DNA of 16,991 nt from a virus (Duplodnaviria; Heunggongvirae; Uroviricota; Caudoviricetes): the IMG/VR virus record IMGVR_UViG_2703718832_000008, positions 1 through 16,991 of that record. One strand, 5' to 3'. The notes under the pieces are model-generated. The model saw nothing but the letters and a program-made list of their open reading frames with translations. It was not told where the DNA came from and searched no databases. Positions 886 to 16,991 of this stretch are shown piece by piece (position 1 is the first letter of the stretch; each line of letters begins with the position of its first letter). Made by a program: the position numbers and the translations under genes.

Positions 886-909
886 GGTCACTCCCTTTGT
901 GACACCTAT

Positions 910-946: not shown

Positions 947-970
947 AATCAAGCATTTAGCTAACCTGAA

Positions 971-1137: not shown

Positions 1138-1155
1138 CTTTGGGCTGGGTGGTCT

Positions 1156-2379
1156 ATGGCTGGCGAACTTAACAAACTGAGCGACAGGAAGTTAAAGGGA
1201 TTACATGGTATCCCGGCCAGTAAGATTGAGTTCTATGCTGATGGTGCCGGGCTGAGCGCCAAGGTAACGAAAGCTGGTGGTATTAGCTGGGTGTTTACTT
1301 ACCGACTCGACGGGCAGAAGCTGCATCGTCTTACTCTGGGACGATACCCGGATATGAGCCTCAAAGAAGCCCGTTCTTCGCGTGATAAATGCCGCCAATG
1401 GCTGGCCTCAGGTAAAGATCCAAAGCACCAGTTGGCGCTGGCCACTCAGGAAACGCTTAAACCGGTCACTGTTAAGGAAGCTATAGAATACTGGATACGC
1501 GAATATGCAGAAGAGAACCGCGCGAATGTTGAACGGCACAAAGCGGAGCTGCGAAAACACATTTATCCTTATATAGGGAAAATGGCGCTCGCTGACTGTG
1601 AAACACGATACTGGCTTGACTGCTTTGACAGGATGAAAAAGAAAACTCCAGTCGCCGCAGGTTATGTGTTCCAGATGTGCAAACAAGCCCTGAAATTCTG
1701 CCGGGTTCGTCGCTATGCTGTGAGTACCGCGCTTGAAGATTTAACAATTCCAGATGTCGGTAAAAAACAGGCAAAAAAAGACCGGGTATTAAACGATAAA
1801 GAGGCTGGCGATTTATGGGCTGCCATTTCCTCTGGCACTTGCTTCATGCCTTACTACACCAGGCTACTGACAATCTTAATGGTGTTTGGGTGCCGAACGC
1901 AGGAGGCCAGGCTATCAGAGTGGAGTGAATGGGATATGGATGCCTGGGTCTGGACAGTTCCCAAAGAGCACAGCAAGGGCGGCGAGAAGATTGTAAGACC
2001 TGTGCCGGATGCCATGCGCAAATTCATTGAAATACTGCATGATGAAACGAAACTATCCGGTCTTTTGCTTGGGTCGGTTAAAGGCAGTGAAGCGGTAAGC
2101 CAGTGGGGCCGTAGCGTTTATAAAAAGCTGGGACATTCTGAACCATGGACACTGCACGATCTAAGACGAACATTAGCAACGCATATGAATAATATGGGTA
2201 TAGCACCACACGTTGTTGAACAGTTGCTGGGGCACTCAATGCCGGGAGTCATGGCGATTTATAATCGCAGCCTGTACTTGCCTGAGAAACTGGATGCGCT
2301 GAATAAATGGTATGACCGTCTCGATATTTTGGCGGGTAATCACTCGAATATTGTTATTTTAAAGGCTGGTGAGAAATGA
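1156..2379 (+). CDS. int: Tyrosine site-specific integrase, P4-like family
   Basis: 407 aa; N-terminal arm-binding-like region, C-terminal catalytic region with HDLRRT and LLGHS...AIYNRSLY motifs (R..HxxR..Y catalytic pattern); GGGTGG ribosome-binding site upstream; placed at the island edge. Confidence 0.95.
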   Translation: MAGELNKLSDRKLKGLHGIPASKIEFYADGAGLSAKVTKAGGISWVFTYRLDGQKLHRLTLGRYPDMSLKEARSSRDKCRQWLASGKDPKHQLALATQETLKPVTVKEAIEYWIREYAEENRANVERHKAELRKHIYPYIGKMALADCETRYWLDCFDRMKKKTPVAAGYVFQMCKQALKFCRVRRYAVSTALEDLTIPDVGKKQAKKDRVLNDKEAGDLWAAISSGTCFMPYYTRLLTILMVFGCRTQEARLSEWSEWDMDAWVWTVPKEHSKGGEKIVRPVPDAMRKFIEILHDETKLSGLLLGSVKGSEAVSQWGRSVYKKLGHSEPWTLHDLRRTLATHMNNMGIAPHVVEQLLGHSMPGVMAIYNRSLYLPEKLDALNKWYDRLDILAGNHSNIVILKAGEK

Positions 2380-3164
2380 AAAAGATAAATAAAATGACCG
2401 ATTTGCCGAAATGGTTTTCATTGGACAATTACAATTCTATCAATGGGCTGAGTGATCTTGATTTAATTAATCAGTTAGCTATGAGAATGGAAGTTGCTAA
2501 TGATGATTTTGAATGGCTTGATACCTATCCCGGAGCAAGAAATGAGTTCGCTTCATTTATGGAAGAAAGATTTAGTAACCCAATTCGGCCGCTGAGCGGA
2601 AAATTATTTGCAGAAAAAATAAAAAGAAAAAAATATTCTGAATGGCAAATGGATTCCGTCGGAGGTGTTGAGCCTTTAAGATTAATTGATGTGATGCAGT
2701 TGTCTAAGAAAGCCGCTCATTATATTGATGAAAATAAAATTAATCGCTCATTGCGTGGACAAAAAAGGTCTGTAAGTAAGACCATAAGCGATAATGATCA
2801 AATGCACATTACTTTAGATTTGTCTTGGCCTGATGAAATTTTATTAAGCGATTTGGCTGCATTGTTGCCAATATGGCGAATGGATCTTGAAAGGAAAAGT
2901 GAAAATAGTTGTAAGTTAAGTAATAGCTGGAGTGTAATCAAAAAGAAAATATTCGATTACAAGATATTGCCAATGTTAGACCTTATGGAGTGGGCTAAAA
3001 TTAACAATGCAACAATCACTAACAGAGTTTTATCTTTGGCCCTATTTCCTAATGCAGAGTATGACGCCATTGGTATCGCTCAAACGATCAAACCGTTCAT
3101 TAGAAATTTTTCCGCAGATTTTTCTATAGAAATATTAAAGCGCAAAGCTATGGATTCATTTTAA
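2376..3164 (+). CDS. Hypothetical protein, AT-rich accessory gene translationally coupled to int
   Basis: 262-aa ORF whose ATG overlaps the int stop (ATGA). Visibly lower GC than the flanking genes, with several A-tracts. No recognisable catalytic motif by eye. Confidence 0.65.
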   Translation: MKKINKMTDLPKWFSLDNYNSINGLSDLDLINQLAMRMEVANDDFEWLDTYPGARNEFASFMEERFSNPIRPLSGKLFAEKIKRKKYSEWQMDSVGGVEPLRLIDVMQLSKKAAHYIDENKINRSLRGQKRSVSKTISDNDQMHITLDLSWPDEILLSDLAALLPIWRMDLERKSENSCKLSNSWSVIKKKIFDYKILPMLDLMEWAKINNATITNRVLSLALFPNAEYDAIGIAQTIKPFIRNFSADFSIEILKRKAMDSF

Positions 3165-3267
3165 TCGGGAAATCCATATAGAAATAATTAAAAATTATCT
3201 AATAGTGAACCATGCTTTTTAATAGCAAATAATAGCCTCCACAAAACGTAGAAACAGTGGAGGCAAC

Positions 3268-3552
3268 ATGCAAAATATCACCTTTACCCCGCCAAATCCT
3301 GAGCAGCGCCGCACCCTTTTAGAAGAGTACGGCTTTAAGTTCGACCGTCGAATTCGTGAAGAAGAATGTAGCGAGATCACCAGCCTTTCCCGTTCCAGCC
3401 GCTGGAAAATGGAGCAGCAAGGTCGATTCCCGCCACGCTGCCACTTTGGTCGTAACAGCTGCGCCTGGCTTCTTTCTGATGTGCTCTGGTGGGTTCGTAA
3501 TCCGCCTGCAGTAGAGAACGTCAATAACCCGTACAGCCGCAAATCTGCTTAA
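3268..3552 (+). CDS. alpA: AlpA-family phage transcriptional regulator (excisionase-like helix-turn-helix)
   Basis: 94 aa; region RIREEECSEITSLSRSSRWKMEQQGRFPPRCHFGRNSCAWLLSDVLWWV matches the AlpA/Vis-type helix-turn-helix as I recall it; GGAGG ribosome-binding site at 3259-3263. Confidence 0.88.
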   Translation: MQNITFTPPNPEQRRTLLEEYGFKFDRRIREEECSEITSLSRSSRWKMEQQGRFPPRCHFGRNSCAWLLSDVLWWVRNPPAVENVNNPYSRKSA

Positions 3553-3572
3553 TTAACTACAGGTAATAGAAT

Positions 3573-4379
3573 ATGGAAAAAATAACTGCCTTGGCTGGCA
3601 GCGGCCAAACTCAATCCGAAACCAGCCAGAAAGATATTTCCAGCGATAATTTTGCTGCGCGAATCCCTGTAACCATGAGCAAGATTGGCGGGAAAGAAAC
3701 CCAGTCTGTAAGCGGACGTAAGCTGCATACGTTTCTGGCTGTAGGGCGAGACTTTACCACCTGGATGAAAGCACGCATCAAACAGTATGGGTTTGTTAAA
3801 GGGGTTGATTATGTAATTGTTGAAGATTTGAGCACCCCAAAACGGGGGAGCGCAAAATCTCGCCAACAAGTCGAGCACGATTACATTGTTAGCCTGAATA
3901 TGGCTAAAGAGCTTTCTATGGTTGAGCGCAACGCGCAAGGCAAGATGGCCCGCCAGTATTTCATCGACTGTGAAGAACGTCTGCGCCGCGTAGCACCAGA
4001 GGAACATGAGGCGGCGTTGTTGGGCTGGCGTAAAAATCGTGTAGCTGCCTGCGAAGATCATAAGAGTATGGCCGATGCAATGAAGGGCTATATCGAGCGC
4101 ACCGGCGACAGGCAGCACGGCTTTGCCTACAGCAATGAATGCTCGTTCCTGAATAGCCTTGTGCTGGGTATGCACCCGCGAGTGTGGGCGAAACAGAAAG
4201 AAATCCCGGTTAAGCAGGTGCGTGACCATATGAACGCCGATCAGCTCGCGCTGCTGGCTTATCTGGAAAGCCGTGATTGTGCTCTGCTGGATCTTGATAC
4301 CCGTACAGCAACCCGTAAGGCGAAACTCACCGAACTGGCACAACGCTGGCTGGTGAAGCGTGTTGGAGGTGCTGAGTGA
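3573..4379 (+). CDS. Phage antirepressor-like protein (AntA/AntB N-terminal domain)
   Basis: 268 aa; segment SGRKLHTFLAVGRDFTTWMKARIKQYGFVKGVDYV fits the AntA-domain pattern (LH.FL.V...F..W...RI..YGF..G.DY). Only 20 bp downstream of alpA, so probably co-transcribed. The start could instead be the internal Met at about 3675. Confidence 0.7.
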   Translation: MEKITALAGSGQTQSETSQKDISSDNFAARIPVTMSKIGGKETQSVSGRKLHTFLAVGRDFTTWMKARIKQYGFVKGVDYVIVEDLSTPKRGSAKSRQQVEHDYIVSLNMAKELSMVERNAQGKMARQYFIDCEERLRRVAPEEHEAALLGWRKNRVAACEDHKSMADAMKGYIERTGDRQHGFAYSNECSFLNSLVLGMHPRVWAKQKEIPVKQVRDHMNADQLALLAYLESRDCALLDLDTRTATRKAKLTELAQRWLVKRVGGAE

Positions 4380-4539
4380 TTTTGCATAACTCAATCAGGG
4401 TTGCGCAGAATTTGAGCAGGCGAAATTCGCACGCGCAAATCAAGCTCGGTGATATGCCGAGTTTGAACAACCGCGTACGTTTAACGTACGGACATCGCAA
4501 CCCATTGAATCAATTTGATTATAACGAACCGTTAGAATT

Positions 4540-4730
4540 GGCGAGCAACAAACACGAACAGTATTCGGGTTCGCCTGAACATCAACACTGCTTAGGTTCG
4601 GCAATCATCTTTAAAGGATGTATCAAGGAAAATCAACAACGTGCAGTTGAGGTTCCAACGAATAACGTAGAGAGCTGCAATGGCAGCGCATTTTTGCTCT
4701 ACGAGGGAAATCAACAACGTACAGTTTTGT
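4540..4730. repeat. Four degenerate direct repeats (~30 bp units, consensus roughly ATCAACAACGTGCAGTTGAGGTTC) in a noncoding region
   Basis: Related units start near 4547, 4581, 4631 and 4710; the two best copies are AAATCAACAACGTGCAGTT (4629-4647) and AAATCAACAACGTACAGTT (4708-4726). Two CGTACG palindromes lie just upstream at 4472-4488. No convincing ORF on either strand. Confidence 0.5.
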
Positions 4731-4860
4731 ACCGTAATCCAAATTTGGCTTACGAGAGGGTAGTACCTCAAAGCCACCAGGTTAACCACGCCGCCAAAAG
4801 ATATGCGGAAAACAAACCCTCTTTAAGAGGGGGAGTCCAGCGTTTGTGCGGGTCATTATG

Positions 4861-4892
4861 TCCTGCGCAAAACAACCCCGAAATTATCGGGG
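4861..4892 (-). terminator. Intrinsic terminator for the minus-strand RHH gene
   Basis: 6-bp stem CCCCGA/TCGGGG with 5-nt loop (4876-4892), followed on the minus strand by TTGTTTTG; sits about 30 nt downstream of the RHH stop. Confidence 0.55.
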
Positions 4893-4923
4893 CAGTCCAC
4901 AGCATTACGGGGAGTAACCCTGT

Positions 4924-5115
4924 TCAGCCTTTTGGCTCGATGCCTTGTCGCAAAAGTTCTTTACGGGCAAGAGCCTTTAGCCAATTGCCAAGGCTCACGC
5001 CTTCCCGGCTGGCAGCCTCATTTAGCTGCTGGCGTAGTTCGGGTGTTATGCGGATCTGGAAGGTCGGTGACAAACCTTCACCTTTCGGAGTTTTATCTCT
5101 TTTGATAGTTGACAT
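4924..5115 (-). CDS. Small ribbon-helix-helix (Arc/CopG-like) DNA-binding protein, putative island regulator
   Basis: 63 aa starting at the internal ATG (5113-5115) with an AGGAG ribosome-binding site upstream on the minus strand; segment FQIRITPELRQQLNEAASREGVSLGNWLKALARKEL has the beta-strand/helix-helix pattern of RHH proteins. The N-terminal extension to 5229 in the ORF track looks non-coding. Confidence 0.6.
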   Translation of the reverse strand: MSTIKRDKTPKGEGLSPTFQIRITPELRQQLNEAASREGVSLGNWLKALARKELLRQGIEPKG

Positions 5116-5163
5116 GTACGTACGTAATCTCCTACTATGGATTCTGTTATGTACGTACGTTAT
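5114..5163. promoter_or_regulatory. Two 15-bp operator-like palindromic sites ATGTACGTACGT[A/T]AT in a divergent control region
   Basis: Copies at 5114-5128 and 5149-5163, centres 35 bp apart; the first contains the perfect 10-bp palindrome TACGTACGTA. They lie between the divergently oriented RHH gene and the HNH-AP2/primase operon. Confidence 0.5.
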
Positions 5164-5444
5164 CACGGCGCATGTAACAAAAGCAACGCCCCGGAGTGCG
5201 GGAACACTGCCGAGGCGTCTAACCACCAACGTTAATAGGAGTAACGCTATGGCTATGCCGCAGTGTAACCAAACTCATCCTAAAAATCGCGTATTTATCT
5301 TTTTGGCTTTAAATCGTGCCGACATGCAGAGCAGGCCACATCGTGAAGTTATTACCGCCGTCAGTGAGCGGGAAGCACGTAAGCTGCTAGTTGGCCGTTT
5401 TATTTTGGTTTTTGCAGGACGCTTACCAGCCAAGGAGATTTATC

Positions 5445-5954
5445 ATGGCTAAATTAACCAATAAATATTTAAAAGAAATTTTAGAATACAGCCCAGAATC
5501 TGGGGTGTTTATTTGGAAAGTTTGTCGTGGTACTACAAAGGCAGGGGATATAGCTGGCAGTATCAAAGTAAGAGGGTATTTAGATATTAAGATTAATAAG
5601 AAGCTATATAAGGCTCATAGGCTCGCATGGTTTTATATGTATGGAGTTTGGCCCGCTAATCTAATTGACCATATTAATGGTAATCGCAGTGATAATCGGT
5701 TGTGTAACTTGCGAGAGGCCACTCACAAAGAAAATTGCAGAAATCAAAGGATGTATAAAAATAACAAGTCAGGAGTAAAGGGAGTTAACTGGAATAAAAC
5801 AGGAAGAAAATGGCTGGCTGCGTGTGCTGTTGACGGGAAAAGATATCACCTAGGAATGTTTGAAGATATTTCAGAAGCAGAGAAAACTATTAAAGATTTT
5901 CGTGAGAAATATCATGGGGAATTCGCCAAGCATGAAGTGACCGGGGAGTTATAA
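5445..5954 (+). CDS. HNH endonuclease with C-terminal AP2 DNA-binding domain (homing-endonuclease-like)
   Basis: 169 aa from ATG 5445 (AAGGAG ribosome-binding site 7 nt upstream). HNH_3-type motif HRLAWFYMYGVWPANLIDHINGNRSDNRLCNLREAT, then AP2-like SGVKGVNWNKTGRKWLAACAVDGKRYHLGMFEDISEAEKT. Visibly AT-rich compared with downstream genes. Confidence 0.8.
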   Translation: MAKLTNKYLKEILEYSPESGVFIWKVCRGTTKAGDIAGSIKVRGYLDIKINKKLYKAHRLAWFYMYGVWPANLIDHINGNRSDNRLCNLREATHKENCRNQRMYKNNKSGVKGVNWNKTGRKWLAACAVDGKRYHLGMFEDISEAEKTIKDFREKYHGEFAKHEVTGEL

Positions 5955-5955
5955 A

Positions 5956-6150
5956 ATGCGTGAGCCAATCTGTCTGGAGCAGGCCGAATATAAATCAGCG
6001 CTGGCTTCATCACTTTACGAAACCATCCTGGAAAAAGCCTCTGCTGAATGTTCAGAAACGCTGCTGAATCTGATTTCTATTGCGTGTGATTTTAATCAGG
6101 AAATTCACCGGGCATTAATCGCCGAGCTGCACATGGGAGAGACAAAATGA
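5956..6150 (+). CDS. Hypothetical small protein (64 aa)
   Basis: ATG immediately after the upstream stop, with GGGGAG ribosome-binding site; first of three tightly coupled small ORFs leading into the primase gene. Confidence 0.5.
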   Translation: MREPICLEQAEYKSALASSLYETILEKASAECSETLLNLISIACDFNQEIHRALIAELHMGETK

Positions 6151-6353
6151 GACAGGTTCCTTTTGAGGTCCTGATGCACGCCGAAGACGCACTGGCATAC
6201 AGCAATCAGGCTCTGGCTATGCTGGAAATCTGGATGGACTCCCTCGGCGAAGGTGATGAACACGAATCTAACTGTGTGGCCGCCATTTTCAGCCTGGTGC
6301 ATGAGTCCAAAGATCGTCTACAGAAAGCGCGGGAGGCTTCCAGTGCAAAATGA
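6147..6353 (+). CDS. Hypothetical small acidic protein (68 aa)
   Basis: ATGA start/stop overlap with the previous ORF; GGGAGAG ribosome-binding site. Confidence 0.5.
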   Translation: MRQVPFEVLMHAEDALAYSNQALAMLEIWMDSLGEGDEHESNCVAAIFSLVHESKDRLQKAREASSAK

Positions 6354-6597
6354 CTTTGTAAGCGATGCGCGGCACGGGAAGCGCGGAGAGTTCAAATTGC
6401 CGCTGTTTTGTGAACTGACTGCAGAAGGGCAGAGTCACATCACCTTTGCCCTAAAGTTTGCCCCCGAGTCTGTGGCTGTGTTCCATCCCGATTCGGGAGA
6501 AATATCTCACTGGCTCAGCCGCGGAAACGAGATTATCGACATTTACGGTTGCTATGCCGTCTTTCCTCGCAATGGCATTAGGGAGGAACAGCAATGA
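6343..6597 (+). CDS. Hypothetical small protein (84 aa, GTG start)
   Basis: GTG at 6343 preceded by GGGAGG 6 nt upstream; overlaps the previous stop and ends in an ATGA overlap with the primase start. The ORF-track start at 6253 would run inside the previous gene and has no ribosome-binding site. Confidence 0.45.
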   Translation: MQNDFVSDARHGKRGEFKLPLFCELTAEGQSHITFALKFAPESVAVFHPDSGEISHWLSRGNEIIDIYGCYAVFPRNGIREEQQ

Positions 6598-9284
6598 GCC
6601 GCGCAATTGAGATTATCCGTGAAGTTAAGCGCCGAGCTGCCGGAAGCTGGGAAAGCCTACTTCCTCAGTGCGGGGTGACGGTTCCGCCGAAAGGCCGTCA
6701 CGGCCCATGCGCCATCTGTGGTGGATCTGACCGATTTCACTACATTGACGACCACGGCGGCGGCGAGTGGCATTGTCGCCAGTGTGACGAGCCAAATCAC
6801 GGCGACGGTCTGGATCTCATTGCCAGATCTCAGGGCATTACCATAACCGCTGCGGCGCAGAAAGTATCCTCTGTGCTGGGTGTTGATGCCCGGACACCGG
6901 AACCGAAGCCAGCCAGAGAGAAGCCTCAGACGGATATCGCCGGGAAAGTTGCGGCGCTGGTTGCTAAAGCCTCTCCGGGGCAGTCTGCTTACCTTGCATC
7001 AAAGGGGCTTCAATGCCCCTTCCCGATGCTGTCCGATGGGTCGCTGCTGCTGGTGCTGAAAAACGGTGCTGGCGCGACGACAGGCGCACAGGTGATTAAG
7101 CCAGATGGCAGTAAGCGGCTGGTGGCCGGAACGGTAAAGAAAGGCTCTTTTTGCGTGGTTAATTCCGGTGAAACGCCGGAGACGGTGATTATCGCCGAAG
7201 GACTGGCAACGGCGCTTTCGGTTCAGCAGTTTCGCCCAGATGCGACAATTATCACAGCGATTGACGCCGGGAATTTGCTGTCAGTTGCGCAGGTGATGCG
7301 ACAGCGTTACCCGGATGCGCAGATCATCATCGCCGCAGATAACGATATTAAGCCTGGCGAACCAAACACGGGTAAATCAGCCGCAGAAAAAACCGCTAAA
7401 GCTGTCTCTGGCTGGGTAGCTTTACCTCAGTCTGAGGAAAAGGCCGACTGGAATGATTTTCACCAGCAACACGGGCTGGAAGCAGCCGCAGCAGCATTTA
7501 ATGATTCGATGTACCAGCCGGAGGGCGAAAAGGTGGTGGTAAAACTTAAGTCTATTGACGGCGGTAAAAAAGAGCAAAAATCAGCTCTGCAAGGTGACGA
7601 ACTGAAACCACGCGTGGAGAGCCGTAACGATGGCTTGTACTGGATTACGCCAAAGGTGGACAAGGACAGCGGAGAAATCATCAATAACGAAGCGTGGCTT
7701 TGTTCGCCTCTTGAGGTAGTTGGTTCAGGTAGTGACGGGGCAGAACGCTATCTTGTTTTGCGCTGGCGTTCGCCGCGTGGCCACGAAGATATTACCAGGG
7801 CGATCCCTTGCGCTGATGTTGGAGAGCGTGAGGGATGGCGCTCACTTAAAGCTGGAGGGGTTAACGTGACCACTAAAAACACCTTTCGTGCCATTCTGGC
7901 CGATTGGCTGCAGCAGTGTGGATCTGGTCAGGAATGGATTATCACTCATACCACTGGCTGGCATAATGGGGCATATATCATGCCTGATGGCGAAGTTATT
8001 GGTGATCCAGAGACACCCATTCTCTTTAATGGTCGCAGCGCTGCATCTTCCGGTTATGCCGTTTCTGGTACGGCTGAGGGCTGGCGGGATTCAGTGGCTT
8101 ATCTGGCCGGTGGCAACCCATCAATGATGCTGGGAGTGGCGGCGGCATTATCCGCGCCGCTTATTGGGCTGGTGGGTGCTGATGGTTTCGGTGTCCACTT
8201 GTTCGAGCAGTCGAGCGCCGGTAAGACCACTACAGCTAATATTGCGAGCAGTCTGTGGGGAGAGCCGGATGCTCTGCGCCTAACGTGGTACGGTACTGCG
8301 CTTGGTATCGCTAACGAAGCGGAGGCGCATAACGACAGTCTGTTACCGCTGGATGAAGTGGGGCAGGGGAGCAGCGCCAAAGACGTTGCCACTTCGGCAT
8401 ACACCTTGTTTAACGGTGCTGGAAAGCTGCAGGGAGCCAAAGAGGGCGGCAATCGGGAGTTGAAACGTTGGCGCACTGTAGCAATCAGTACCGGGGAAAT
8501 GGATATCGAGACGTTTCTTTCTGCTGGTGGGCTAAAAGTTAAGGCAGGCCAGTTGGTTCGCCTGCTGAATATCCCTATGGAGAAATCGACGGCCTTTCAT
8601 GGCCTGCAGAACGGCAAGGCTCATGCTGATGCACTGAAGCAGGCATGGATTGAAAATCACGGTGCAGCGGGCCGAGAGTGGGTTAAATGGTTGGCGGCTC
8701 ACCAGAAGGAAGCTAAACAGGCCGTACATGACGCCCAGACGCGCTGGCGCGGACTCATTCCGGCTGATTATGGCGAGCAGGTGCACCGCGTGGCAGAACG
8801 CTTTGCAATCCTTGAAGCTGCGCTGGTGACTGGTGCATCAATCACCGGATGGGATGAACAGGCCAGCCGTGATGCTATCCAGCATAGCTTTAATGCCTGG
8901 GTGAAAGAGTTCGGAACGGGAAATAAAGAGCACCAGCAGATCATCGAGCAGTGCGAGGCGTTTCTTAATGCTTATGGTCTGAGCCGGTTCGCCCCTTTGC
9001 CTTATGATCCTGCAAGCCTGCCAATCAGTAATCTTGCCGGGTATCGTAAGCGTAAGAGCAACCATGATGATGCGCCCATGGTGTTCTATACATTCCCTGC
9101 AACGTTTGAGAAGGAGATAGCGCAGGGATTTAATGCTAGGCAGTTTGCCCGTGCGCTTGCCGCTGCCGGTTTGCTCTCTGAGCCATCAAGTGGGAGAGGA
9201 TATCAACAGAAATCACCGCGAATTGATGGGCGCCAAATCAACGTTTATGTACTTCAACAAGTTGCAGAAGAAGGGGCGGAATAA
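6594..9284 (+). CDS. Primase-helicase (zinc-ribbon + TOPRIM primase + P-loop NTPase domains)
   Basis: 896 aa. N-terminal Cys/His cluster (CAICGG...HCRQC); TOPRIM-like IIAEGLATALS and IIAADND; Walker A SSAGKTT and Walker B-like LLPLDEV in the C-terminal half. Sits immediately upstream of the iteron origin. Confidence 0.9.
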   Translation: MSRAIEIIREVKRRAAGSWESLLPQCGVTVPPKGRHGPCAICGGSDRFHYIDDHGGGEWHCRQCDEPNHGDGLDLIARSQGITITAAAQKVSSVLGVDARTPEPKPAREKPQTDIAGKVAALVAKASPGQSAYLASKGLQCPFPMLSDGSLLLVLKNGAGATTGAQVIKPDGSKRLVAGTVKKGSFCVVNSGETPETVIIAEGLATALSVQQFRPDATIITAIDAGNLLSVAQVMRQRYPDAQIIIAADNDIKPGEPNTGKSAAEKTAKAVSGWVALPQSEEKADWNDFHQQHGLEAAAAAFNDSMYQPEGEKVVVKLKSIDGGKKEQKSALQGDELKPRVESRNDGLYWITPKVDKDSGEIINNEAWLCSPLEVVGSGSDGAERYLVLRWRSPRGHEDITRAIPCADVGEREGWRSLKAGGVNVTTKNTFRAILADWLQQCGSGQEWIITHTTGWHNGAYIMPDGEVIGDPETPILFNGRSAASSGYAVSGTAEGWRDSVAYLAGGNPSMMLGVAAALSAPLIGLVGADGFGVHLFEQSSAGKTTTANIASSLWGEPDALRLTWYGTALGIANEAEAHNDSLLPLDEVGQGSSAKDVATSAYTLFNGAGKLQGAKEGGNRELKRWRTVAISTGEMDIETFLSAGGLKVKAGQLVRLLNIPMEKSTAFHGLQNGKAHADALKQAWIENHGAAGREWVKWLAAHQKEAKQAVHDAQTRWRGLIPADYGEQVHRVAERFAILEAALVTGASITGWDEQASRDAIQHSFNAWVKEFGTGNKEHQQIIEQCEAFLNAYGLSRFAPLPYDPASLPISNLAGYRKRKSNHDDAPMVFYTFPATFEKEIAQGFNARQFARALAAAGLLSEPSSGRGYQQKSPRIDGRQINVYVLQQVAEEGAE

Positions 9285-9308
9285 AATACACATGTGAGGA
9301 TTGTTATT

Positions 9309-9601
9309 GTTGGTTCAGTTGGTTCAATGATTGTTAATTACATTCATGTTACTGTTTTACATAGGGTTTATGTCTAATAATTGAACCAACACTGAACCAA
9401 CAAACGGCTATTTTGAACCAACATGTTCCGCTATTGAACCAACCCCCTTTTCTGGCTGGCCTGTAAATATTTGCCACTGAACCAACATAAAAATAGCATT
9501 TGTTGGTTCAAAAAGGGGCTTTGTTAGTTCACTTAATGAAAATAATGCCTTTAAAAACAATAATCTTTACAAATTGAACCAACTGAACTGACTGAACCAA
9601 C
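9309..9601. repeat. Replication origin: iteron array of TGAACCAAC (about 7 direct and 3 inverted copies) plus AT-rich stretch
   Basis: Direct copies at 9382-9390, 9393-9401, 9414-9422, 9435-9443, 9478-9486, 9575-9583 and 9593-9601; inverted copies GTTGGTTCA at 9310-9318, 9319-9327 and 9502-9510; AT-rich segment 9538-9573. Located directly downstream of the primase-helicase gene. Confidence 0.75.
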
Positions 9602-9638
9602 ATAGTTTTGCATCTATACACAAAAAATAGAGGATGTT

Positions 9639-9941
9639 ATGGACAAAAAAAGCAGTGATGACCTGGTATATTCGAAGGTGCTGATCCAGAAAGTGGTTGA
9701 GCACAAAGATATGTTTGGGGTTCCAGACAGCAAAACGGATTTGCAGCTTATGCCGCTTAGCGAATACCGGGAACTGGTGAAGCGAGAAGCTTTCTTTTTT
9801 GTGGATCACAATGGTTTCCTGCGCCATCAATTTTCTGGTGATGTTATGGCTGCCAGCAAAGAACAACTGGATATCCTTATCGGCGAATTGAAAGCGAAGC
9901 GTGAGCTGCTTGATGATGCTCTGGATTGCGCTAAGGAATAA
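9639..9941 (+). CDS. Hypothetical protein (100 aa) downstream of the origin
   Basis: ORF with GAGGA-like ribosome-binding site; acidic, helical-looking C-terminus; no recognisable family by eye. Confidence 0.5.
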   Translation: MDKKSSDDLVYSKVLIQKVVEHKDMFGVPDSKTDLQLMPLSEYRELVKREAFFFVDHNGFLRHQFSGDVMAASKEQLDILIGELKAKRELLDDALDCAKE

Positions 9942-9978
9942 TTTTGTAAATTATTTGTACTCATGTTTACCCGTGATT

Positions 9979-10003
9979 ACCCCTGTCTCTGATGGGGGTT
10001 TTC
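9979..10003 (+). terminator. Weak intrinsic terminator candidate
   Basis: CCCC/GGGG stem with 10-nt loop followed by TTTTCTTT, about 40 nt after the preceding stop codon. Confidence 0.3.
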
Positions 10004-10173
10004 TTTATATTTTTCATGTATATCTTGAAGAGTGGCACTCAGACGTGAGCCGCCACTGGCCGTTAAGTCAAGCTGTAGCGAGTACAGCCTGCGAGAGGCA
10101 GAAAAAGATTTAACGGCCTCCCCTCCAAGCGCTGGTTTCACGTCTCTACGTTAATTGATACGGAAACCACTCC

Positions 10174-11340
10174 ATGAAGAAACTACTCGAATTACGCCAG
10201 CAGAAAGCCGCACTCAAAACACAGATGCGTTCCATGCTGGACAAAGCCGACACCGAAAAGCGCAGCCTGAACGAAGAAGAGGGCAAAAAGTTCGACGAAC
10301 TCCGCGCCCAGGCTGATGCGCTTGAAGTTGAAATCACCCGCCTTGAAGCCGTCGCCGACGATCAGCGCAATCTGCCTGGTACTTCCGTCGAAGGTGAGCC
10401 AGTAAGCAACGACGAGCTGCGCCACTACATCATGACAGGTGATACCCGTTCTCTCTCCACGCTGGTGCAGGCTGACGGCGGTTATACCGTTATCCCTGAG
10501 CTGGACAAAGAGATTATGCGCCAGTTGCAGGATGATAGCGTGATGCGTTCCATCGCAACGGTGAAGACCACCAAAACCAACGAATACCAGAAGCTGGTAT
10601 CTGTGGGCGGCACTACTGTTAATCGTGGTACCGAAGGTGAGGCACGTACCGAAACCAGTACGCCGAAGATGGAGCGCGTTGATATCAAACTCAACCCGAT
10701 CTACGCCTACCCGAAAACCACTCAGGAGATTCTCGACTTCTCTGAGGTGGACATTCTGGGCTGGCTGTCTTCTGAAATCGCCGACACCTTCACCGCTACC
10801 GAAGAGAGCGACTTTGTGAACGGCGACGGTGATAAAAAATCCAAAGGGTTCCTGTCTTACCCTCGCGCTGTCACTGCCGACAAAACCCGTCCGTTCGGTA
10901 CGCTGGAGAAGATGGAGGCGGCTGACGTTTCCTCTGATGGCCTGATCGACCTGCTGTATAAGCTGAAAGCCAAATACCGCAAAAACGCCGTATGGGTGAT
11001 GAACTCCAACACCGCCGCCAAACTGCAAAAGCTGAAAAACGGCAACGGAGATTACATCTGGCGCGATCGTCTGGTTGCCGGTTCTCCCGATACGCTGCTG
11101 GGCCGTCCTGTTCAGTATCTGGAAACCATGCCGGATGCGGATGCAGGTAAAGCGTTCCTCGCGGTAGGCGACTTCAAGCGCGGCTATTTCATCGTGGATC
11201 ACACCACTGGCGTGCGTACCCGTCCTGACAACATCACCGAACCGGGTTTCTACAAGGTGCATACCGATAAGTACCTGGGCGGCGGTGTGGTGGACTCCAA
11301 CGCCATCAAGGTGCTTGAGCTTTCAGGCTCCGGTTCCTGA
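10174..11340 (+). CDS. Major capsid protein, HK97 fold, with N-terminal coiled-coil (delta/scaffold-like) domain
   Basis: 388 aa; N-terminal roughly 100 residues are charged and coiled-coil-like, the remainder resembles HK97-family major capsid proteins; the long antisense ORF 10192..11262 is a shadow. Confidence 0.92.
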   Translation: MKKLLELRQQKAALKTQMRSMLDKADTEKRSLNEEEGKKFDELRAQADALEVEITRLEAVADDQRNLPGTSVEGEPVSNDELRHYIMTGDTRSLSTLVQADGGYTVIPELDKEIMRQLQDDSVMRSIATVKTTKTNEYQKLVSVGGTTVNRGTEGEARTETSTPKMERVDIKLNPIYAYPKTTQEILDFSEVDILGWLSSEIADTFTATEESDFVNGDGDKKSKGFLSYPRAVTADKTRPFGTLEKMEAADVSSDGLIDLLYKLKAKYRKNAVWVMNSNTAAKLQKLKNGNGDYIWRDRLVAGSPDTLLGRPVQYLETMPDADAGKAFLAVGDFKRGYFIVDHTTGVRTRPDNITEPGFYKVHTDKYLGGGVVDSNAIKVLELSGSGS

Positions 11341-11350
11341 TTTGACGTTT

Positions 11351-11372
11351 AAGGGGCTGCGGCCCCTTTTTG
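11351..11372 (+). terminator. Intrinsic terminator/attenuator immediately after the capsid gene
   Basis: GC-rich hairpin AAGGGGC-TGCG-GCCCCTT followed by a T-run, 10 nt after the capsid stop and 20 nt before the protease start. Confidence 0.6.
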
Positions 11373-11391
11373 CCCTCTGTGGAGTCCAGTA

Positions 11392-11952
11392 ATGAAAACA
11401 ATTGATTTTGAAATCCGTACTTCCGAAGTGAGCGCCAGCAACAAAAAGCTGGTGGGCTATGCCGTGCGCTGGAACAGCCTGTCAGAAGTTATCTGGGATG
11501 AGTTCCGCGAACAGTTTGCGCCGGGAGCGTTTAAAGACAGCCTGGCATCCGGTAGCGATGTGCGTGCGCTGTATGAGCATAACTATACCCAGCTGCTGGG
11601 CCGCACTAAATCCGGCACGCTGGTGCTGTCCGAAGACGATACCGGGCTGCGCTTCGAGCTGACTCCGCCGAATACCCAGCTTGGCAACGATGTGCTGGAG
11701 CTGGTGGAGCGCGGGGATATCTCCGGCATGAGCTTTGGTTTCCGGGCGCTGAAAGAGGCGTGGGATATTGCTCAGTCTCCATATCTGCGCACTGTTACCG
11801 CTGCCGAACTGCGGGAGATTACCGTTACCTCTATGCCTGCTTATCCTGAGTCTGGCGTGGAAATCGCGCACCGTTCGCTTTTCTCCCAACATCCTGAACT
11901 GCGCCGCGCTGGCGATAACCGTCGCCGCTGGGCTGATTTAGCGGGGCTCTGA
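11392..11952 (+). CDS. Prohead protease, HK97 family
   Basis: 186 aa; resembles HK97-family prohead proteases (segments ALYEHN...LLGRT and LRFEL); GGAG ribosome-binding site. Confidence 0.9.
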   Translation: MKTIDFEIRTSEVSASNKKLVGYAVRWNSLSEVIWDEFREQFAPGAFKDSLASGSDVRALYEHNYTQLLGRTKSGTLVLSEDDTGLRFELTPPNTQLGNDVLELVERGDISGMSFGFRALKEAWDIAQSPYLRTVTAAELREITVTSMPAYPESGVEIAHRSLFSQHPELRRAGDNRRRWADLAGL

Positions 11953-11953
11953 T

Positions 11954-13189
11954 ATGTGGAATATCTGGCCGTTTGGCCGTAAGTCTGAACCCTCAGAGCA
12001 GCGCAGCATGACCATTGATGAATTTCTGGCGATGGCAGGGATTCCAAATACCGGATCAGGCGAGTATGTGTCTGCGGGTACTGCGGAATCTCTGCCGGCG
12101 GTCATGAACGCCGTATCAGTTATCAGTGAGGCGGTGGCAACAATGCCCTGCTATCTCTACCGCGTCCGTAATGATAATGGTCGTGAGGCGCGAGAATGGC
12201 TGAGTAATCACCCGGTGGATTTTCTCCTGAACGAGCAGCCGAACGACTGCCAGACGCCTTATCAGTTTAAACGCACGATGATGCGCCATTGTCTGCTGAA
12301 TGGTAACGCCTATGCGGTGATCCAGTGGGGCCGCGACGGCCAGCCGCAATCCCTGCACCCGTATGCGCCGGGGGCGGTTGTTCCTGAGCGTATCGGCCAG
12401 CATAAGTACAAATACACCGTTACAGAGCCGTTTACCGGGGCTGTGCGCACCTATCTACAGGAAGAGATTCTGCACCTGCGTTACTCCACCGATGATGGCT
12501 TTCTGGGGCGTTCGCCTATTACTACGTGCCGTGAGGCGCTGGGGTTAGGTCTGGCCCAACAGCGCCACGGTGCCAGCATTATGAAAGATGGCATGATGGC
12601 GGCGGGCGTCGTCACTACTGCTGAATGGCTCGACAGCGTGAAGGGTAAGCAGGCTCTGGACGCACTGGAGCGCTACAAAGGTGCCAGAAATGCCGGGAAA
12701 ACGCCGATCCTTGAAGGTGGCATGGACTACAAGCAGCTTGGCATGAGCAATCAGGATGCCGAATGGCTGGCGTCGCGCCGGTTCTCCATTGAAGACATTG
12801 CCCGCATGTTCAACGTGTCGCCCATCTTCCTGCAGGAATACAGCAACAGCACCTACAGCAATTTCAGCGAAGCGAGCCGCGCCTTTCTCACCATGACCAT
12901 GCGCCCGTGGCTGGCGAACTTCGAGCAACAAATCAAATCTGCTTTGCTGGTGGCCTCTCCGGTTCCGGGAACCCGTTATCAGGTGGAGTTTGACTCTGCT
13001 GACCTTCTCCGTGCCACACCTACCGAGCGTTACGCCACTTATGAGCGAGGCATTAAGAACGGGATCATGAACCCGAACGAAGCCCGTGAGCGCGAGGGGA
13101 TGCCGCCGCGTGAAGGTGGTGACGAATTCAGCCAGGCATGGAAGCAGGAAGTGAAGATCAGCAAAGACGGCAAGGAAGGTGACGCATGA
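11954..13189 (+). CDS. Portal protein, HK97 family
   Basis: 411 aa; start 1 nt after the protease stop; size and sequence character consistent with HK97-type portal proteins. Confidence 0.9.
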   Translation: MWNIWPFGRKSEPSEQRSMTIDEFLAMAGIPNTGSGEYVSAGTAESLPAVMNAVSVISEAVATMPCYLYRVRNDNGREAREWLSNHPVDFLLNEQPNDCQTPYQFKRTMMRHCLLNGNAYAVIQWGRDGQPQSLHPYAPGAVVPERIGQHKYKYTVTEPFTGAVRTYLQEEILHLRYSTDDGFLGRSPITTCREALGLGLAQQRHGASIMKDGMMAAGVVTTAEWLDSVKGKQALDALERYKGARNAGKTPILEGGMDYKQLGMSNQDAEWLASRRFSIEDIARMFNVSPIFLQEYSNSTYSNFSEASRAFLTMTMRPWLANFEQQIKSALLVASPVPGTRYQVEFDSADLLRATPTERYATYERGIKNGIMNPNEAREREGMPPREGGDEFSQAWKQEVKISKDGKEGDA

Positions 13190-13524
13190 GAGCCGGGGGG
13201 CTGAGAAGCCGCGTCACTATTCGGGTATTCACTACCCACAGGGAGCCGTCCGGTCAGGTTGTTCAGGTCTGGGAAGACGGGGAAACCATATGGGCTGAGG
13301 TTAAGGGGATCAGTGGCCGAGAGTTAATGGCGTCAGGTGCCGAGGTTGCCGAAGCGACGATCCGCGTTTGGGTGCGTTTCCGCCGTGATATTACCGCAGC
13401 CAACCGTCTGAAAGTGCTTACTGGCCCGTTTGCTGGCAGCACTCTCAATATTATCGGGCCTCCTATTCCTGATTCGGAAGGTACCCGGCTGGAAATTCTC
13501 TGCAAGACAGGAACGGAAAAATGA
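13186..13524 (+). CDS. Head closure / head-tail adaptor protein
   Basis: 112 aa; ATGA overlap with the portal gene; resembles phage head-closure proteins and sits in the expected head-completion position. Confidence 0.75.
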   Translation: MRAGGLRSRVTIRVFTTHREPSGQVVQVWEDGETIWAEVKGISGRELMASGAEVAEATIRVWVRFRRDITAANRLKVLTGPFAGSTLNIIGPPIPDSEGTRLEILCKTGTEK

Positions 13525-13814
13525 CAGCAGAAATCACCCTGGAAGAAGCAAAGCTGCATTGCCGTATTGATGATGATTATGAAGACACGCTGATACAGGC
13601 GTACATCGATGCGGCGCTGGAGGTTTGCCAGAAGCATATCGGCAAGCGGTTTGATAACGGGCTGGAGTTTACGCCAGCTATCAAGATTGGCTGTCTGATG
13701 TACGTATCTCAGCTGTACGAGTACCGCACGATGATTGGTGATACCGACGCCAAAGAGATACCGATGGCTGTCTCTGCGTTGTGGTCTGTCTATCGTGATG
13801 TGGGGGTGTACTGA
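13521..13814 (+). CDS. gp6-like head-tail connector protein
   Basis: 97 aa; N-terminus ITLEEAKLHCRIDDDYEDTLIQAYIDAA is the usual signature of gp6-like connector proteins; ATGA overlap upstream. Confidence 0.85.
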   Translation: MTAEITLEEAKLHCRIDDDYEDTLIQAYIDAALEVCQKHIGKRFDNGLEFTPAIKIGCLMYVSQLYEYRTMIGDTDAKEIPMAVSALWSVYRDVGVY

Positions 13815-14257
13815 TGCCGTGGCAACCACTACGCCGGTGCAATGAGCCGGGATGTAATAAACGGGTGAAGTCTGGCAAGTGTGACGAGCATAAGCGGGAT
13901 GCCCGCCGACAAAGCGACAGCCGAAGAGGTACGCGAACAGAGCGTGGTTACTCCAACCGCTGGGGCGAATACCGTCGTCATTTTCTAAAAGCTAATCCGC
14001 TGTGTGTCCATTGTCTCAAGGCTGGCGTCTATGCATCGGCAACTATCGTCGATCACATCATCCCTATCGAGGGTGAAGCTGATGTGCTGTTCTGGCCCGC
14101 CAGTAATCACCAGTCGTTATGCGCTGCCTGTCATGGACGGAAGACAACCACAACAGACCCGGTGACGAAGCAGCAGCGTAAAGCCGGTAAGTTCCGCGAG
14201 CAGGAAGAAGCAGCACGTCATCGCACCGACTGGATCTATGAGGCAAACAATGACTGA
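13814..14257 (+). CDS. HNH endonuclease associated with the terminase
   Basis: 147 aa; Cys-rich N-terminus, HNH motif DHIIPIEGEAD...NHQSLCAACH; located directly upstream of terS as in cos-type HK97-like packaging modules. Confidence 0.9.
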   Translation: MPWQPLRRCNEPGCNKRVKSGKCDEHKRDARRQSDSRRGTRTERGYSNRWGEYRRHFLKANPLCVHCLKAGVYASATIVDHIIPIEGEADVLFWPASNHQSLCAACHGRKTTTTDPVTKQQRKAGKFREQEEAARHRTDWIYEANND

Positions 14258-14402
14258 GCAGGAACAGCAGCGGCTGATTAGTGGGCTGATAAAGCAGCGC
14301 GAGGCATGGCAACCAGCCAGACAGAGAGCGCATAAGAAGCCCGTAGCAAAGCGCATGAGCCAGCGTGACCGGGAGCTTATGGAATGCTTTCGCAACCGCT
14401 GA
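14250..14402 (+). CDS. Possible small basic protein (50 aa); uncertain
   Basis: ATG overlaps the HNH stop by 8 nt; the ORF is below the length cut-off of the supplied track; product is Q/R/K-rich; no supporting motif. Confidence 0.3.
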   Translation: MTEQEQQRLISGLIKQREAWQPARQRAHKKPVAKRMSQRDRELMECFRNR

Positions 14403-14409
14403 CAGGCCG

Positions 14410-14530
14410 AATGGACGGGGTGGGGGAGGTTTTCAGGACAAACCCCTCTCAGCGAGGAACCACCCGCCCCCTCAAATTTTTACGCACGGTGATTTTTTTG
14501 AAAATAAAACAGACAGGAAAACAGTAAGTT
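14410..14530. other. Candidate cos / packaging-recognition region between HNH and terS
   Basis: GC-rich G-tract GGGGTGGGGGAGG (14417-14429) and C-tract CCACCCGCCCCCTC (14460-14473) with partial dyad symmetry, followed by T-runs; cos-type phages with HNH-TerS-TerL place cos here. Confidence 0.4.
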
Positions 14531-14887
14531 ATGGCAAGACCACCCAAACCGCCCGCCTACCTTGATGAAATCGCGGCGCAGCAGTGGAAAGCAAAGGCGA
14601 AGCAGCTGGCGGAGCGCGGTGATCTGACGCCTGCCGACTGGAACAACCTTGAGCTGTATTGCGTCAATTACTCGATGTACCGCAAAGCCGTGGAAGACCT
14701 TGCCACGCGGGGATTCAGCATAGTGAACAGCCAGGGCGGTGAGAGCCGTAACCCGGCACTGAGCGCAAAAGCGGATGCCGAAAAAATTCTCATAAAAATG
14801 TCGTCGCTGCTGGGCTTTGATCCGGTAAGCCGCCGCCGTAATCCGGTAGAAACGGAAGAGGAGGACGAGCTTGACCGTCTGGAATGA
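14531..14887 (+). CDS. terS: Terminase small subunit, P27 family
   Basis: 118 aa; N-terminus MARPPKPPAYLDEIAAQQWK and overall size match P27-family small terminases. Confidence 0.85.
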   Translation: MARPPKPPAYLDEIAAQQWKAKAKQLAERGDLTPADWNNLELYCVNYSMYRKAVEDLATRGFSIVNSQGGESRNPALSAKADAEKILIKMSSLLGFDPVSRRRNPVETEEEDELDRLE

Positions 14888-16532
14888 TTACGCAAACGCC
14901 ATTAAATCGGGTGAAATTCCGGCCTGTAAGCGCGTAAAACAGGCCGTCGAGAGGTACTTTTCAGACCTGAATGACCCCCGTTATGAGTTCGATACGGCGA
15001 CCGTGGAGCGGTTTATTGCCTTCTCCCGGCTCTGCCCACACGTCAAAGGCCCGCTTAGGGGCCAGCCAATAGAGCTGGAACCGTGGCAGCAGTTCGCCTT
15101 TGCTAACCTGCTGGGCTTTAAGGTCAGGGAGTCAGGCCGCCGTAAGTACAGCAGCGCCTTTATTGAGGTGCCGCGCAAGAACGCCAAATCAACCGTAGCC
15201 GCCATGCTGGCTAACTGGTTTCTGGTAATGGAGAAGGGCCAGCAGGATATCTACACGGCGGCGGTAAGCCGGGATCAGGCCCGAATCGTGTTCGACGATG
15301 CCCGCCAGATGTGCCTGCTGTCAAAACCGCTGAAAAAGCGCGTCAATATCCAGGCGCATAAGGTCATTTTTCCGAAGAGCAACAGCCTGTTAAAGCCGCT
15401 GGCGGCGAAAGCGGCCACCATTGAAGGGACTAACCCCAGCCTGGCGATTGTCGATGAATACCACCTTCACCCGGATAACGGCGTTTATTCCGCCCTCGAG
15501 CTGGGTATGGGCGCACGTCCGGAGGCGATTTTGTTCGCTATCACTACCGCCGGGAGTAACGTTGTCTCTGCCTGTAAGCAGCATTATGACTACTGCTGTC
15601 AGATTCTGGCCGGGGAGGAGGGCAACGATTCGCTGTTTGTACTGATCTACGAGCTGGACGACGAAAGCGAGGTTGAGCAGCCTGAAATGTGGATCAAGGC
15701 TAACCCTAACCTGCATGTGTCCGTTGACGCAGCGAAACTAGAATCCACTATCCAGAAAGCCCGGGGTATACCGTCGCAGTGGGTGGAAATGCTGACCAAG
15801 CGTTTCAATATCTGGTGTCAGGGCTCCACTCCGTGGATGGGAGCCGGCGCATGGGATGCCTGTGCGCTCGAATATACCGAAGAAGATCTGTCCGGGATGG
15901 AGTGTTACGCCGGATTTGACCTGTCCTCAACCAGCGATATTACCAGTGTGAGTTACGCTTTCCCGTTTGAACGCGAGATCAGGCTTCTTACCCGGCACTA
16001 TCTGCCCGAAGCACAACTACTTAACGTTGCTAACAAAAACCGCGCCATCTATCGGCAGTGGGTAAAAGCGGGCTGGATACGCACCACCCCCGGCGACTGT
16101 ATTGACTATGATCGCATCCGTGACGATATCCTGCGCGACGCTGAAATATTCAATATCCGGCTGGTGGGCTTTGATACGTGGAACGCGACACACTTGCGAA
16201 CCCAGTTACAGGGGGCTGGCCTCGATGTGGAGCCGTTCCCGCAAACCTATCTGAAATTCAGTCCGGTAGCGAAATCTTTTGAGGTTTTTGTTAACCGCAA
16301 GGTGGTGCGCCATCGTGGCGATCCGGTTCTGGCCTGGGCGATTGGTAACGTGGTGATGGAGTCCGATGCCAACGCCAATATCAAACCTAACAAAAAGAAA
16401 TCCTCCAACAAGATAGACCCGGCGGTTTCTGCACTCATGGCGTTCGGCACATTCCTGGCAGAACACGAAGATTTTGCTTTCGATATGAGCGACAGTCACA
16501 AAGAGCGACTGGCTTTATTTAATGGGATTTGA
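14871..16532 (+). CDS. terL: Terminase large subunit
   Basis: 553 aa; ATPase P-loop-like PRKNAKST, nuclease-like C-terminal half; apparent TTG start at 14871 with GAGGAGGA ribosome-binding site, overlapping the terS 3' end by 17 nt. Confidence 0.92.
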   Translation: MTVWNDYANAIKSGEIPACKRVKQAVERYFSDLNDPRYEFDTATVERFIAFSRLCPHVKGPLRGQPIELEPWQQFAFANLLGFKVRESGRRKYSSAFIEVPRKNAKSTVAAMLANWFLVMEKGQQDIYTAAVSRDQARIVFDDARQMCLLSKPLKKRVNIQAHKVIFPKSNSLLKPLAAKAATIEGTNPSLAIVDEYHLHPDNGVYSALELGMGARPEAILFAITTAGSNVVSACKQHYDYCCQILAGEEGNDSLFVLIYELDDESEVEQPEMWIKANPNLHVSVDAAKLESTIQKARGIPSQWVEMLTKRFNIWCQGSTPWMGAGAWDACALEYTEEDLSGMECYAGFDLSSTSDITSVSYAFPFEREIRLLTRHYLPEAQLLNVANKNRAIYRQWVKAGWIRTTPGDCIDYDRIRDDILRDAEIFNIRLVGFDTWNATHLRTQLQGAGLDVEPFPQTYLKFSPVAKSFEVFVNRKVVRHRGDPVLAWAIGNVVMESDANANIKPNKKKSSNKIDPAVSALMAFGTFLAEHEDFAFDMSDSHKERLALFNGI

Positions 16533-16682
16533 GCATAAAGCGTAAAGGCAGAATTATCTTGAGGTTATCAGGAATATAAAATTGCTCTAGATCACTACAT
16601 TGCTGTCGTGGAATAGGAAGAGTCTGTTTTGTTGTTTATAAATGTATTGCAGGGCTTTTCCTGTTCAAACTTCTGGTGAAAT

Positions 16683-16991
16683 ATGACTGATAAATGGGCT
16701 GATTACCTTATTTCTAAAGTCCGATATAACGATAAACACACTCACATTACCCATGTGTATGTGCATGTCGATAATGGCGATACTGTTGGAGAAGGGACAT
16801 CAGAAACACGGCAGTGGGTAGTGAATAAAATCGATAGCGGCTATACCTTTTACACCATTTTCAAAGGTGATGACGGTAAGTGGAAGAAAGGTCAAAAAGT
16901 GGTTAAGGACCGTGTCAACGGTACTGATTACATTACTACTAGACCTAATGGTACATCCAAGGATAACTTAGAAAACCTTCCTGAGTACTAA
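16683..16991 (+). CDS. DUF3892 domain protein; AT-rich accessory gene
   Basis: 102 aa; sequence character matches the DUF3892 family as I recall it; stop codon is the last three bases of the window; preceded by a 150-bp AT-rich spacer. Confidence 0.7.
   Translation: MTDKWADYLISKVRYNDKHTHITHVYVHVDNGDTVGEGTSETRQWVVNKIDSGYTFYTIFKGDDGKWKKGQKVVKDRVNGTDYITTRPNGTSKDNLENLPEY

Follow-up and report, generated by a model that had tools for sequence, protein, structure and literature searches.

The head-assembly and packaging operon of a capsid-forming satellite in Escherichia coli: a family-wide gene order, a hairpin behind the capsid gene and a predicted cos region

Results

Head and packaging genes at the locus

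The window analysed here is a whole 16,991-nucleotide stretch of DNA held as a virus in IMG/VR (record IMGVR_UViG_2703718832_000008, positions 1 to 16,991). Its positions 10174-16532 are, with high confidence, the head-assembly and DNA-packaging operon of a complete proteobacterial cf-PICI (capsid-forming phage-inducible chromosomal island) residing in an Escherichia coli chromosome. We take the island to be complete because integrase, AlpA and primase genes are present, tail and lysis genes are not, and the site is that between yhdJ and fis. The unusual order of its head genes is real, but it is the published signature of a common cf-PICI family and is already known: Alqurainy et al. (10.1101/2022.09.08.507074; later Cell Host & Microbe) state it for the proteobacterial cf-PICIs as capsid-protease-portal-connectors followed by hnh-terS-terL.

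Genes were assigned from an open reading frame (ORF) listing of the window together with Pfam and PHROGs scans, and every head and packaging gene proposed in the initial annotation was found in its place, each on the + strand. The first (10174-11340) encodes a major capsid protein of the HK97 fold (PF05065, 3.8e-69, residues 102-382; phrog_10, 1.3e-95) with an N-terminal delta-like domain of ~100 amino acids (aa). It is followed by genes for a prohead serine protease of the S78 family (11392-11952; PF04586, 4.8e-48; phrog_80), the portal (11954-13189; PF04860, 1.9e-96; phrog_12), the head closure protein Hc1, of the HK97 gp7 family and likely the tail-facing interface (13186-13524; PF05521, phrog_25), and the head-tail adaptor Ad1, of the HK97 gp6 family (13521-13814; PF05135, phrog_40). 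The packaging enzymes come last: an HNH endonuclease, a packaging accessory of HK97/P27-type terminases (13814-14257; PF01844; phrog_144, 2.9e-39), a small terminase, TerS, of the P27 family (14531-14887; PF05119, 1.4e-25; phrog_83), and the large terminase, TerL, with ATPase and nuclease domains (14871-16532; PF03354 and PF20441; phrog_9, 1.9e-177). An ORF of 356 aa lies antisense to the capsid gene (10192-11262, minus strand); most likely it is only a shadow ORF, a by-product of the strong constraint on the capsid frame.

The proposal that these genes form one tightly coupled operon holds for most of the junctions, which overlap or abut: protease and portal are separated by 1 nt (TGAtATG), portal/Hc1 and Hc1/Ad1 share ATGA overlaps, Ad1 and HNH are joined by TGATG, and terS and terL overlap by 17 nt, terL beginning at a TTG codon that PGAP also uses as its start in relatives. 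It does not hold for the 51-nt gap between capsid and protease, which contains a hairpin, nor for the uncoupled 273-nt interval between HNH and terS, where the operon is broken by the cos spacer.

Gene order in the satellite family and in tailed phages

Expressed in HK97 gene numbers, the phage order is 74(HNH)-cos-1-2-3-4-5-6-7-tail and that of the satellite 5-4-3-7-6-74-cos-1-2, on a single strand. The description of the module as inverted is apt for its internal gene order, which is reversed relative to phages; no inversion of DNA is involved, all the genes lying on one strand.

Related loci were gathered by a capsid-based search (80 loci from species-representative genomes) and by a second search (80 IMG/VR contigs), and their gene order was checked by local tblastn with the window proteins. 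The same order was seen in 165/165 related loci from more than 20 genera; 120 of these loci are complete, the others being cut by contig ends or having a divergent Hc1, and two records are opened at terS. The genera include Escherichia, Citrobacter, Enterobacter, Kluyvera, Kosakonia, Rahnella, Pantoea, Pectobacterium, Erwinia and Serratia, as well as Proteus, Providencia, Xenorhabdus, Photorhabdus, Gilliamella, Frischella and Arsenophonus, and the order is found also in Pasteurella (Pmp8, described below). The ~16-kb architecture recurs in more than 100 genomes, with capsid identities of 67-100%. Two Xenorhabdus species carry five capsid-gene copies each, X. anantnagensis (loci L030, L039, L066, L071, L076) and X. 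innexi (L041, L058, L063, L065, L075); two of the X. anantnagensis copies share a contig and an orientation at a distance of ~12 kb, which suggests tandem cf-PICIs.

Every complete tailed phage examined showed HNH-(cos)-terS-terL-portal-protease-capsid-Ad1-Hc1. This canonical order was established by annotation and local tblastn for HK97, SfIV, phiP27, vB_PaeS-D14E, a Desulfofustis phage and an Acutalibacteraceae phage, and from tblastn coordinates for SfI, SfII, ST64B, YeP1, As1, S.Typ Adana, three vB_EcoM phages, Kp4882-1 and three gut phages. The finding by which the initial annotation would have been overturned, its gene order in a complete tailed phage, was made in none of these ~17 distinct genomes. 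Kept throughout the 165 loci, absent from these phages and stated as such by Alqurainy et al., the order belongs to the satellite family and not to HK97-like helper phages, as had been suspected.

Among records labelled as phages, the satellite order occurs only in two satellites of 15-16.5 kb and in one composite. 'Escherichia phage vB_KppS-Ant' (LR881103.1, 16.5 kb; capsid 98% identical) and 'Pasteurella phage Pmp8' (OR544139.1, 15.3 kb; capsid 62%) share with the window the content and order of the module, the hairpin and the cos blocks, and differ from it in accessory genes. Each bears a doubtful tail annotation: a 'tail length tape measure protein' after terL in LR881103.1 (2036-4333) and a 'tail terminator' just 5' of the capsid gene in OR544139.1 (1-408). 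The third, 'Klebsiella phage P12620-1' (PQ569648.1, 106.5 kb), was considered as a complete phage with satellite order and rejected as composite. Besides two Baseplate_J modules and a helicase/primase set it carries a portal of an unrelated family, Phage_portal_3, and at its end a cos-permuted cf-PICI unit has been appended, joined exactly at the terS start codon and ending a few nt before the stop codon of the 50-aa ORF described below.

A hairpin behind the capsid gene

Ten nucleotides past the capsid stop codon lies a GC hairpin with a short T-run (11351-11371, + strand), a candidate leaky intrinsic terminator or 3' stabiliser. Its stem is formed by AAGGGGC (11351-11357) and GCCCCTT (11362-11368) around a TGCG loop, and the T-run reaches 11371. 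The hairpin noted here initially is thus real: stem and T-run are plain in the sequence, and they are conserved in the family. Of 83 distinct family sequences, 78 have a hairpin of at least 5 bp no more than 45 nt from the capsid stop, as against 32% of shuffled controls, and it is this conservation that supports it, since the thermodynamics alone are unexceptional.

Several results weaken the case for the hairpin. Folding of the hairpin in the window is not significant (z = -1.46; 18/200 shuffles fold equally well), and a covariation test on 44 aligned sequences found no compensatory change in any of 4 consensus pairs. Covariation is almost lacking because the GGGG/CCCC core is invariant; isolated compensatory variants, GGGAT/ATCCC in the X. 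innexi locus L065 and a long hairpin in Proteus, were picked out by eye only. The U-tract is short and varies across the family (TTTTTG, TTTCTG, TTTCC, TTTGTA), and if AlpA or the helper drove antitermination the hairpin would not attenuate at all. A simple terminator scan did not pick up 11351-11371, because the free T-tract is short.

Counterparts occur elsewhere. That of Pasteurella Pmp8 is a canonical terminator with six T residues; in the HK97 record a 'putative terminator' is annotated 7 nt past gp5, the capsid gene; and strong hairpins occupy the equivalent site in SfIV and phiP27. The hairpin is not peculiar to satellites: it is conserved across the cf-PICI family, and these comparisons are evidence that it was inherited from HK97-like phages. 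It must be leaky or read through, because the protease gene starts only 19 nt beyond it and the homologues of the downstream genes in EcCIEDL933 are all needed for transfer, as shown by mutation of that module (10.1101/2022.09.08.507074). We consider it most likely to be a partial terminator or 3' stabiliser that would favour capsid mRNA; an enrichment of capsid that affects stoichiometry is plausible.

Upstream of the capsid gene, the terminator scan found a terminator-like hairpin with a T-run (9979-9999, + strand) that closes the preceding unit, and the family conservation profile shows a partly conserved leader at ~9942-10050 (TTTTGTAAATTATTTGTAC...). A promoter scan revealed no convincing sigma-70 consensus promoter between the 9979-9999 hairpin and the capsid gene, nor in the cos spacer; expression of the capsid operon may require an activator or antitermination.

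The hairpin might instead be a 3' stability or processing element, or be simply read through under antitermination, the gene order being a frozen layout that has no part in stoichiometry and follows the general PICI plan, in which morphogenesis genes and after them terS lie at the end away from int. We regard this alternative as quite possible, though short of probable. In its favour, such hairpins accompany capsid genes in HK97, SfIV and phiP27, phages with antiterminated late operons, and it agrees with the short, variable U-tract, with the want of room for a separate promoter before the essential downstream genes, and with the resemblance of the upstream 9979-9999 hairpin to a promoter-terminator arrangement that needs read-through. 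Against it stand the conservation of hairpin position and GC core in 78/83 sequences, the canonical form of the Pmp8 terminator, and an order that tracks product abundance: ~235 capsid subunits, then the protease, then the 12-mer portal and connectors, then the enzymes. Conservation and abundance-ranked order fit attenuation by the hairpin without proving it.

The HNH-terS interval: a small ORF and a predicted cos region

The 273 nt between HNH and terS are made up of a 50-aa ORF and a 128-nt non-coding spacer that holds the cos region. The ORF (14250-14402, + strand), which is conserved and of unknown function, shares 8 nt with HNH, and phrog_3173 matches the whole of it (1.8e-17); a Pfam scan of it gave no match. 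It is missing from the gene list of the initial annotation and left unannotated by PGAP in the E. coli relatives inspected, and it is annotated in LR881103. Divergent family members keep it intact at 47-50 aa, with a conserved basic C-terminal RDRELxECFRNR and a divergent N-terminal half, and within the phage collection it occurs in satellite-type records only. Many Xenorhabdus copies are without this ORF, the spacer there being ~133 nt. It might correspond to 'hypothetical gene 1792' of EcCIEDL933, whose loss severely reduced transfer.

The cos region is placed at 14415-14510 by homology to phiP27 and by family conservation. Within it CACCCGCCCC (14461-14470) can be aligned with CGCCCGCCCC, the 10-nt cos-site that is annotated between the HNH and terS genes of phiP27. 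The predicted site is flanked by a G-rich block, GGGGTGGGGGAGG, upstream and by a conserved TCAAATTTTTACGCAC...TTTTTTTGAAAATAAAAC block; the context that can be aligned with phiP27 comprises the G-rich block and, downstream, TCAAATTTTTAC. Two blocks, 14415-14445 and 14456-14510, show 80-99% identity per column in 122 distinct family sequences, far above the neighbouring coding DNA, and they are kept in Pasteurella Pmp8. The linear record LR881103 terminates within the HNH-terS spacer, with ~69 nt missing relative to the window; it was possibly re-opened by its authors, and its end lends weak support to the placing of cos.

Since cos lies between HNH and terS, packaged DNA should have terS-terL at its start and HNH at its end, the arrangement of HK97 and phiP27. 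The statement that the terminase genes come last is accordingly right for the integrated map but not for the packaged one, which would open at cos with terS-terL first. This raises the question of whether the whole order is an artefact of where a circular, cos-permuted map is opened, the module really having phage order. The position of cos and the deposition of LR881103 in the cos-opened permutation lend themselves to such a view; we think it very improbable. Because all the head genes share the strand of terS-terL, the internal order of the satellite cannot be derived by rotating or inverting a phage map: neither rotation nor reverse-complementing turns portal-protease-capsid-Ad1-Hc1 into capsid-protease-portal-Hc1-Ad1. 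In the circular satellite map, moreover, integrase, regulation and replication genes separate terL from the capsid and the other head genes. Map opening is refuted for the internal order and stands only for the 'terminases last' description. The true differences of the cf-PICI module from phages are that its head genes lie beyond the integrase and replication genes, and that their internal order is 5-4-3-7-6 in place of 3-4-5-6-7.

The island and its relatives

All genes from the integrase to a DUF3892 gene are co-oriented on the + strand; chromosomal yhdJ (1-891, minus strand) forms their left flank. A tyrosine integrase gene (1156-2379; PF13356 and PF00589) adjoins yhdJ at the left end of the satellite, a position it also has in E. 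coli relatives. It is followed by genes for a DUF6387 protein (2376-3164), an AlpA-family regulator, a PICI core component (3268-3552; PF05930, 3.9e-10), an AntA-like protein (3573-4379), a 358-aa protein with a repressor-like C-terminus (4376-5452) and an HNH_3/AP2 endonuclease that resembles homing endonucleases (5391-5954), then several small ORFs, and a long primase/replicase with Zn-ribbon, Toprim and DUF927 domains (6594-9284; PF08273, PF13362, PF06048). The stretch from alpA/antA to the primase, in which the genes at 4376-5452 and 5391-5954 lie, is variable and is missing from the closest E. coli relatives. Beyond terL, the DUF3892 gene begins at 16683 and runs off the end of the window; in the relative L002 fis lies directly 3' of it. 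Related islands in E. coli genomes, annotated in the same way by PGAP, occupy the same yhdJ-fis site and measure ~15.7 kb from int to the last gene; the yhdJ junction lies inside the window. The most that any complete E. coli genome covers of the window is 68%.

The SatelliteFinder model of a cfPICI lists 11 core components and forbids tails and holins; the paper finds such elements in ~13% of Enterobacteriaceae genomes (PMC10085698). All 11 are present here. The window has the integrase, AlpA and primase/replicase module; its own capsid, prohead protease and portal (E-values 1e-48 to 1e-96); Hc1 (PF05521 / phrog_25) and Ad1 (PF05135 / phrog_40); HNH, TerS and TerL (PF01844, PF05119, PF03354 and PF20441); and the order of the proteobacterial clade, capsid-protease-portal-connectors, then hnh-terS-terL. 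No tail or holin/lysis family was matched by window ORFs of at least 50 aa on the coding strand in the Pfam and PHROGs scans. The gene content and gene order of a cf-PICI were thus found in full, and nothing was found that contradicts the identification; the tail and lysis modules and the terS-terL-portal-protease-capsid-Ad1-Hc1 order of a complete HK97-like prophage are not there.

With EcCIEDL933, EcCIGN02175 and KpCIDSM30104 the window shares the int-alpA-primase left half, the head order, hnh-terS-terL, the lack of tail and lysis genes and probably, for the island as a whole, a length of ~15-17 kb; cf-PICIs of the EcCIEDL933 type likewise have accessory regions that vary on either side of the packaging operon, and variable adaptor/connector genes. 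It differs from them in its own accessory set: DUF6387, the AntA-like protein, the HNH_3/AP2 endonuclease, the long DUF927 primase and DUF3892. A record from a lysate on ATCC 43895 (OR845787; 79.5% identical to the window) was considered as a piece of EcCIEDL933 and rejected, for it has no match in O157 genomes; its best genome match, 97.5%, is in unrelated strains. Classical Gram-negative PICIs (EcCICFT073 type) also have the int-alpA-primase module, and packaging genes far from int; they have no portal, adaptor, connector or terL gene and rely on the capsid proteins of the helper (PMC10085698), whereas the window has all four.

HK97, phiP27 and SfIV share with the window the protein families, the HNH-cos-terS-terL order, the cos core, the post-capsid hairpin and a capsid protein with a delta-like domain and no separate scaffold gene. 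They differ in having terL-portal-protease-capsid-Ad1-Hc1-tail, where the window has capsid-protease-portal-Hc1-Ad1 5' of HNH and no tail or lysis genes; Alqurainy et al. likewise remark that phage and PICI packaging modules 'have different genetic organisations' (10.1101/2022.09.08.507074). Protein identities to the phages checked are 26-40%, Hc1 excepted: 35-40% for the capsid against those of SfIV and phiP27, 40% for HNH against L34 of phiP27, and ~27-28% for portal and TerL against HK97, to which capsid, protease and Ad1 gave no match. Hc1 is 61% identical in aa sequence to HK97 gp7, and Klebsiella prophages show 69-73% nucleotide identity to the window over the Hc1 gene alone (13186-13524), which looks like a recombined, tail-matching cassette. 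That Hc1 alone is close to HK97 fits the swapping of adaptor/connector genes to match helper tails, reported along with T=4 capsids (10.1101/2025.02.11.637232), and the helper tail is therefore probably HK97-like.

That the locus is instead a decayed, scrambled HK97-like prophage, bereft of tail and lysis genes and without satellite function, is scarcely credible: its head and packaging proteins do all belong to phage-derived families, and such elements are stored as 'viral' or 'phage' in IMG/VR and GenBank, but the ORFs are all intact and translationally coupled, the left half is a PICI int-alpA-primase module, random decay would not yield the recurrence of one ~16-kb architecture in more than 100 genomes of over 20 genera with capsids 67-100% identical, genomes of this type (15-16.5 kb; LR881103, OR544139) have been recovered from induced lysates, and homologous elements have been mobilised experimentally.

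Discussion

The operon at 10174-16532 is best read as that of a complete proteobacterial cf-PICI. Some points limit this reading. The likeness to EcCIEDL933 is drawn from its published description; the tailed phages compared, ~17 distinct genomes, are part of the whole collection; the right end of the island (attR) lies beyond the window; and induction, T=4 capsids, tail hijacking and the position of cos cleavage are attributed to this element by homology. The experiments behind that homology, on EcCIEDL933, KpCIDSM30104 and EcCIGN02175, cover helper induction, self-made small T=4 capsids, exclusive self-packaging and tail hijacking (10.1101/2022.09.08.507074; 10.1101/2025.02.11.637232).

By analogy with those elements, induction by a helper phage would lead the island to excise and replicate, and the operon would build small T=4 capsids. 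With HNH, TerS and TerL cutting at its own cos, the island would have its DNA packaged in unit lengths; Ad1 and Hc1 would then complete the head, to which a helper-made tail, probably HK97-like, would attach.

The gene order in itself has no discovery value, being a published hallmark of proteobacterial cf-PICIs. The useful additions are the position of cos by homology to phiP27, the phage ancestry of the hairpin, the often unannotated 50-aa gene, and the recognition that only the internal order, and not the position of the terminase genes, is non-phage. In the searchable cf-PICI texts we found no discussion of the post-capsid hairpin, the cos position or the 50-aa ORF. A further outcome is that some GenBank 'phage' records are recognised as satellites or composites.

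A bolder proposal, which we put forward as speculation and think rather unlikely, is that the head genes have been re-sorted by descending copy number behind a leaky terminator, so that the order is adaptive, and that the 50-aa phrog_3173 protein is a satellite-specific factor for packaging specificity. Were this true, a satellite without phage-style control of late genes would set the stoichiometry of assembly by transcriptional polarity, and its gene order would be no frozen accident.

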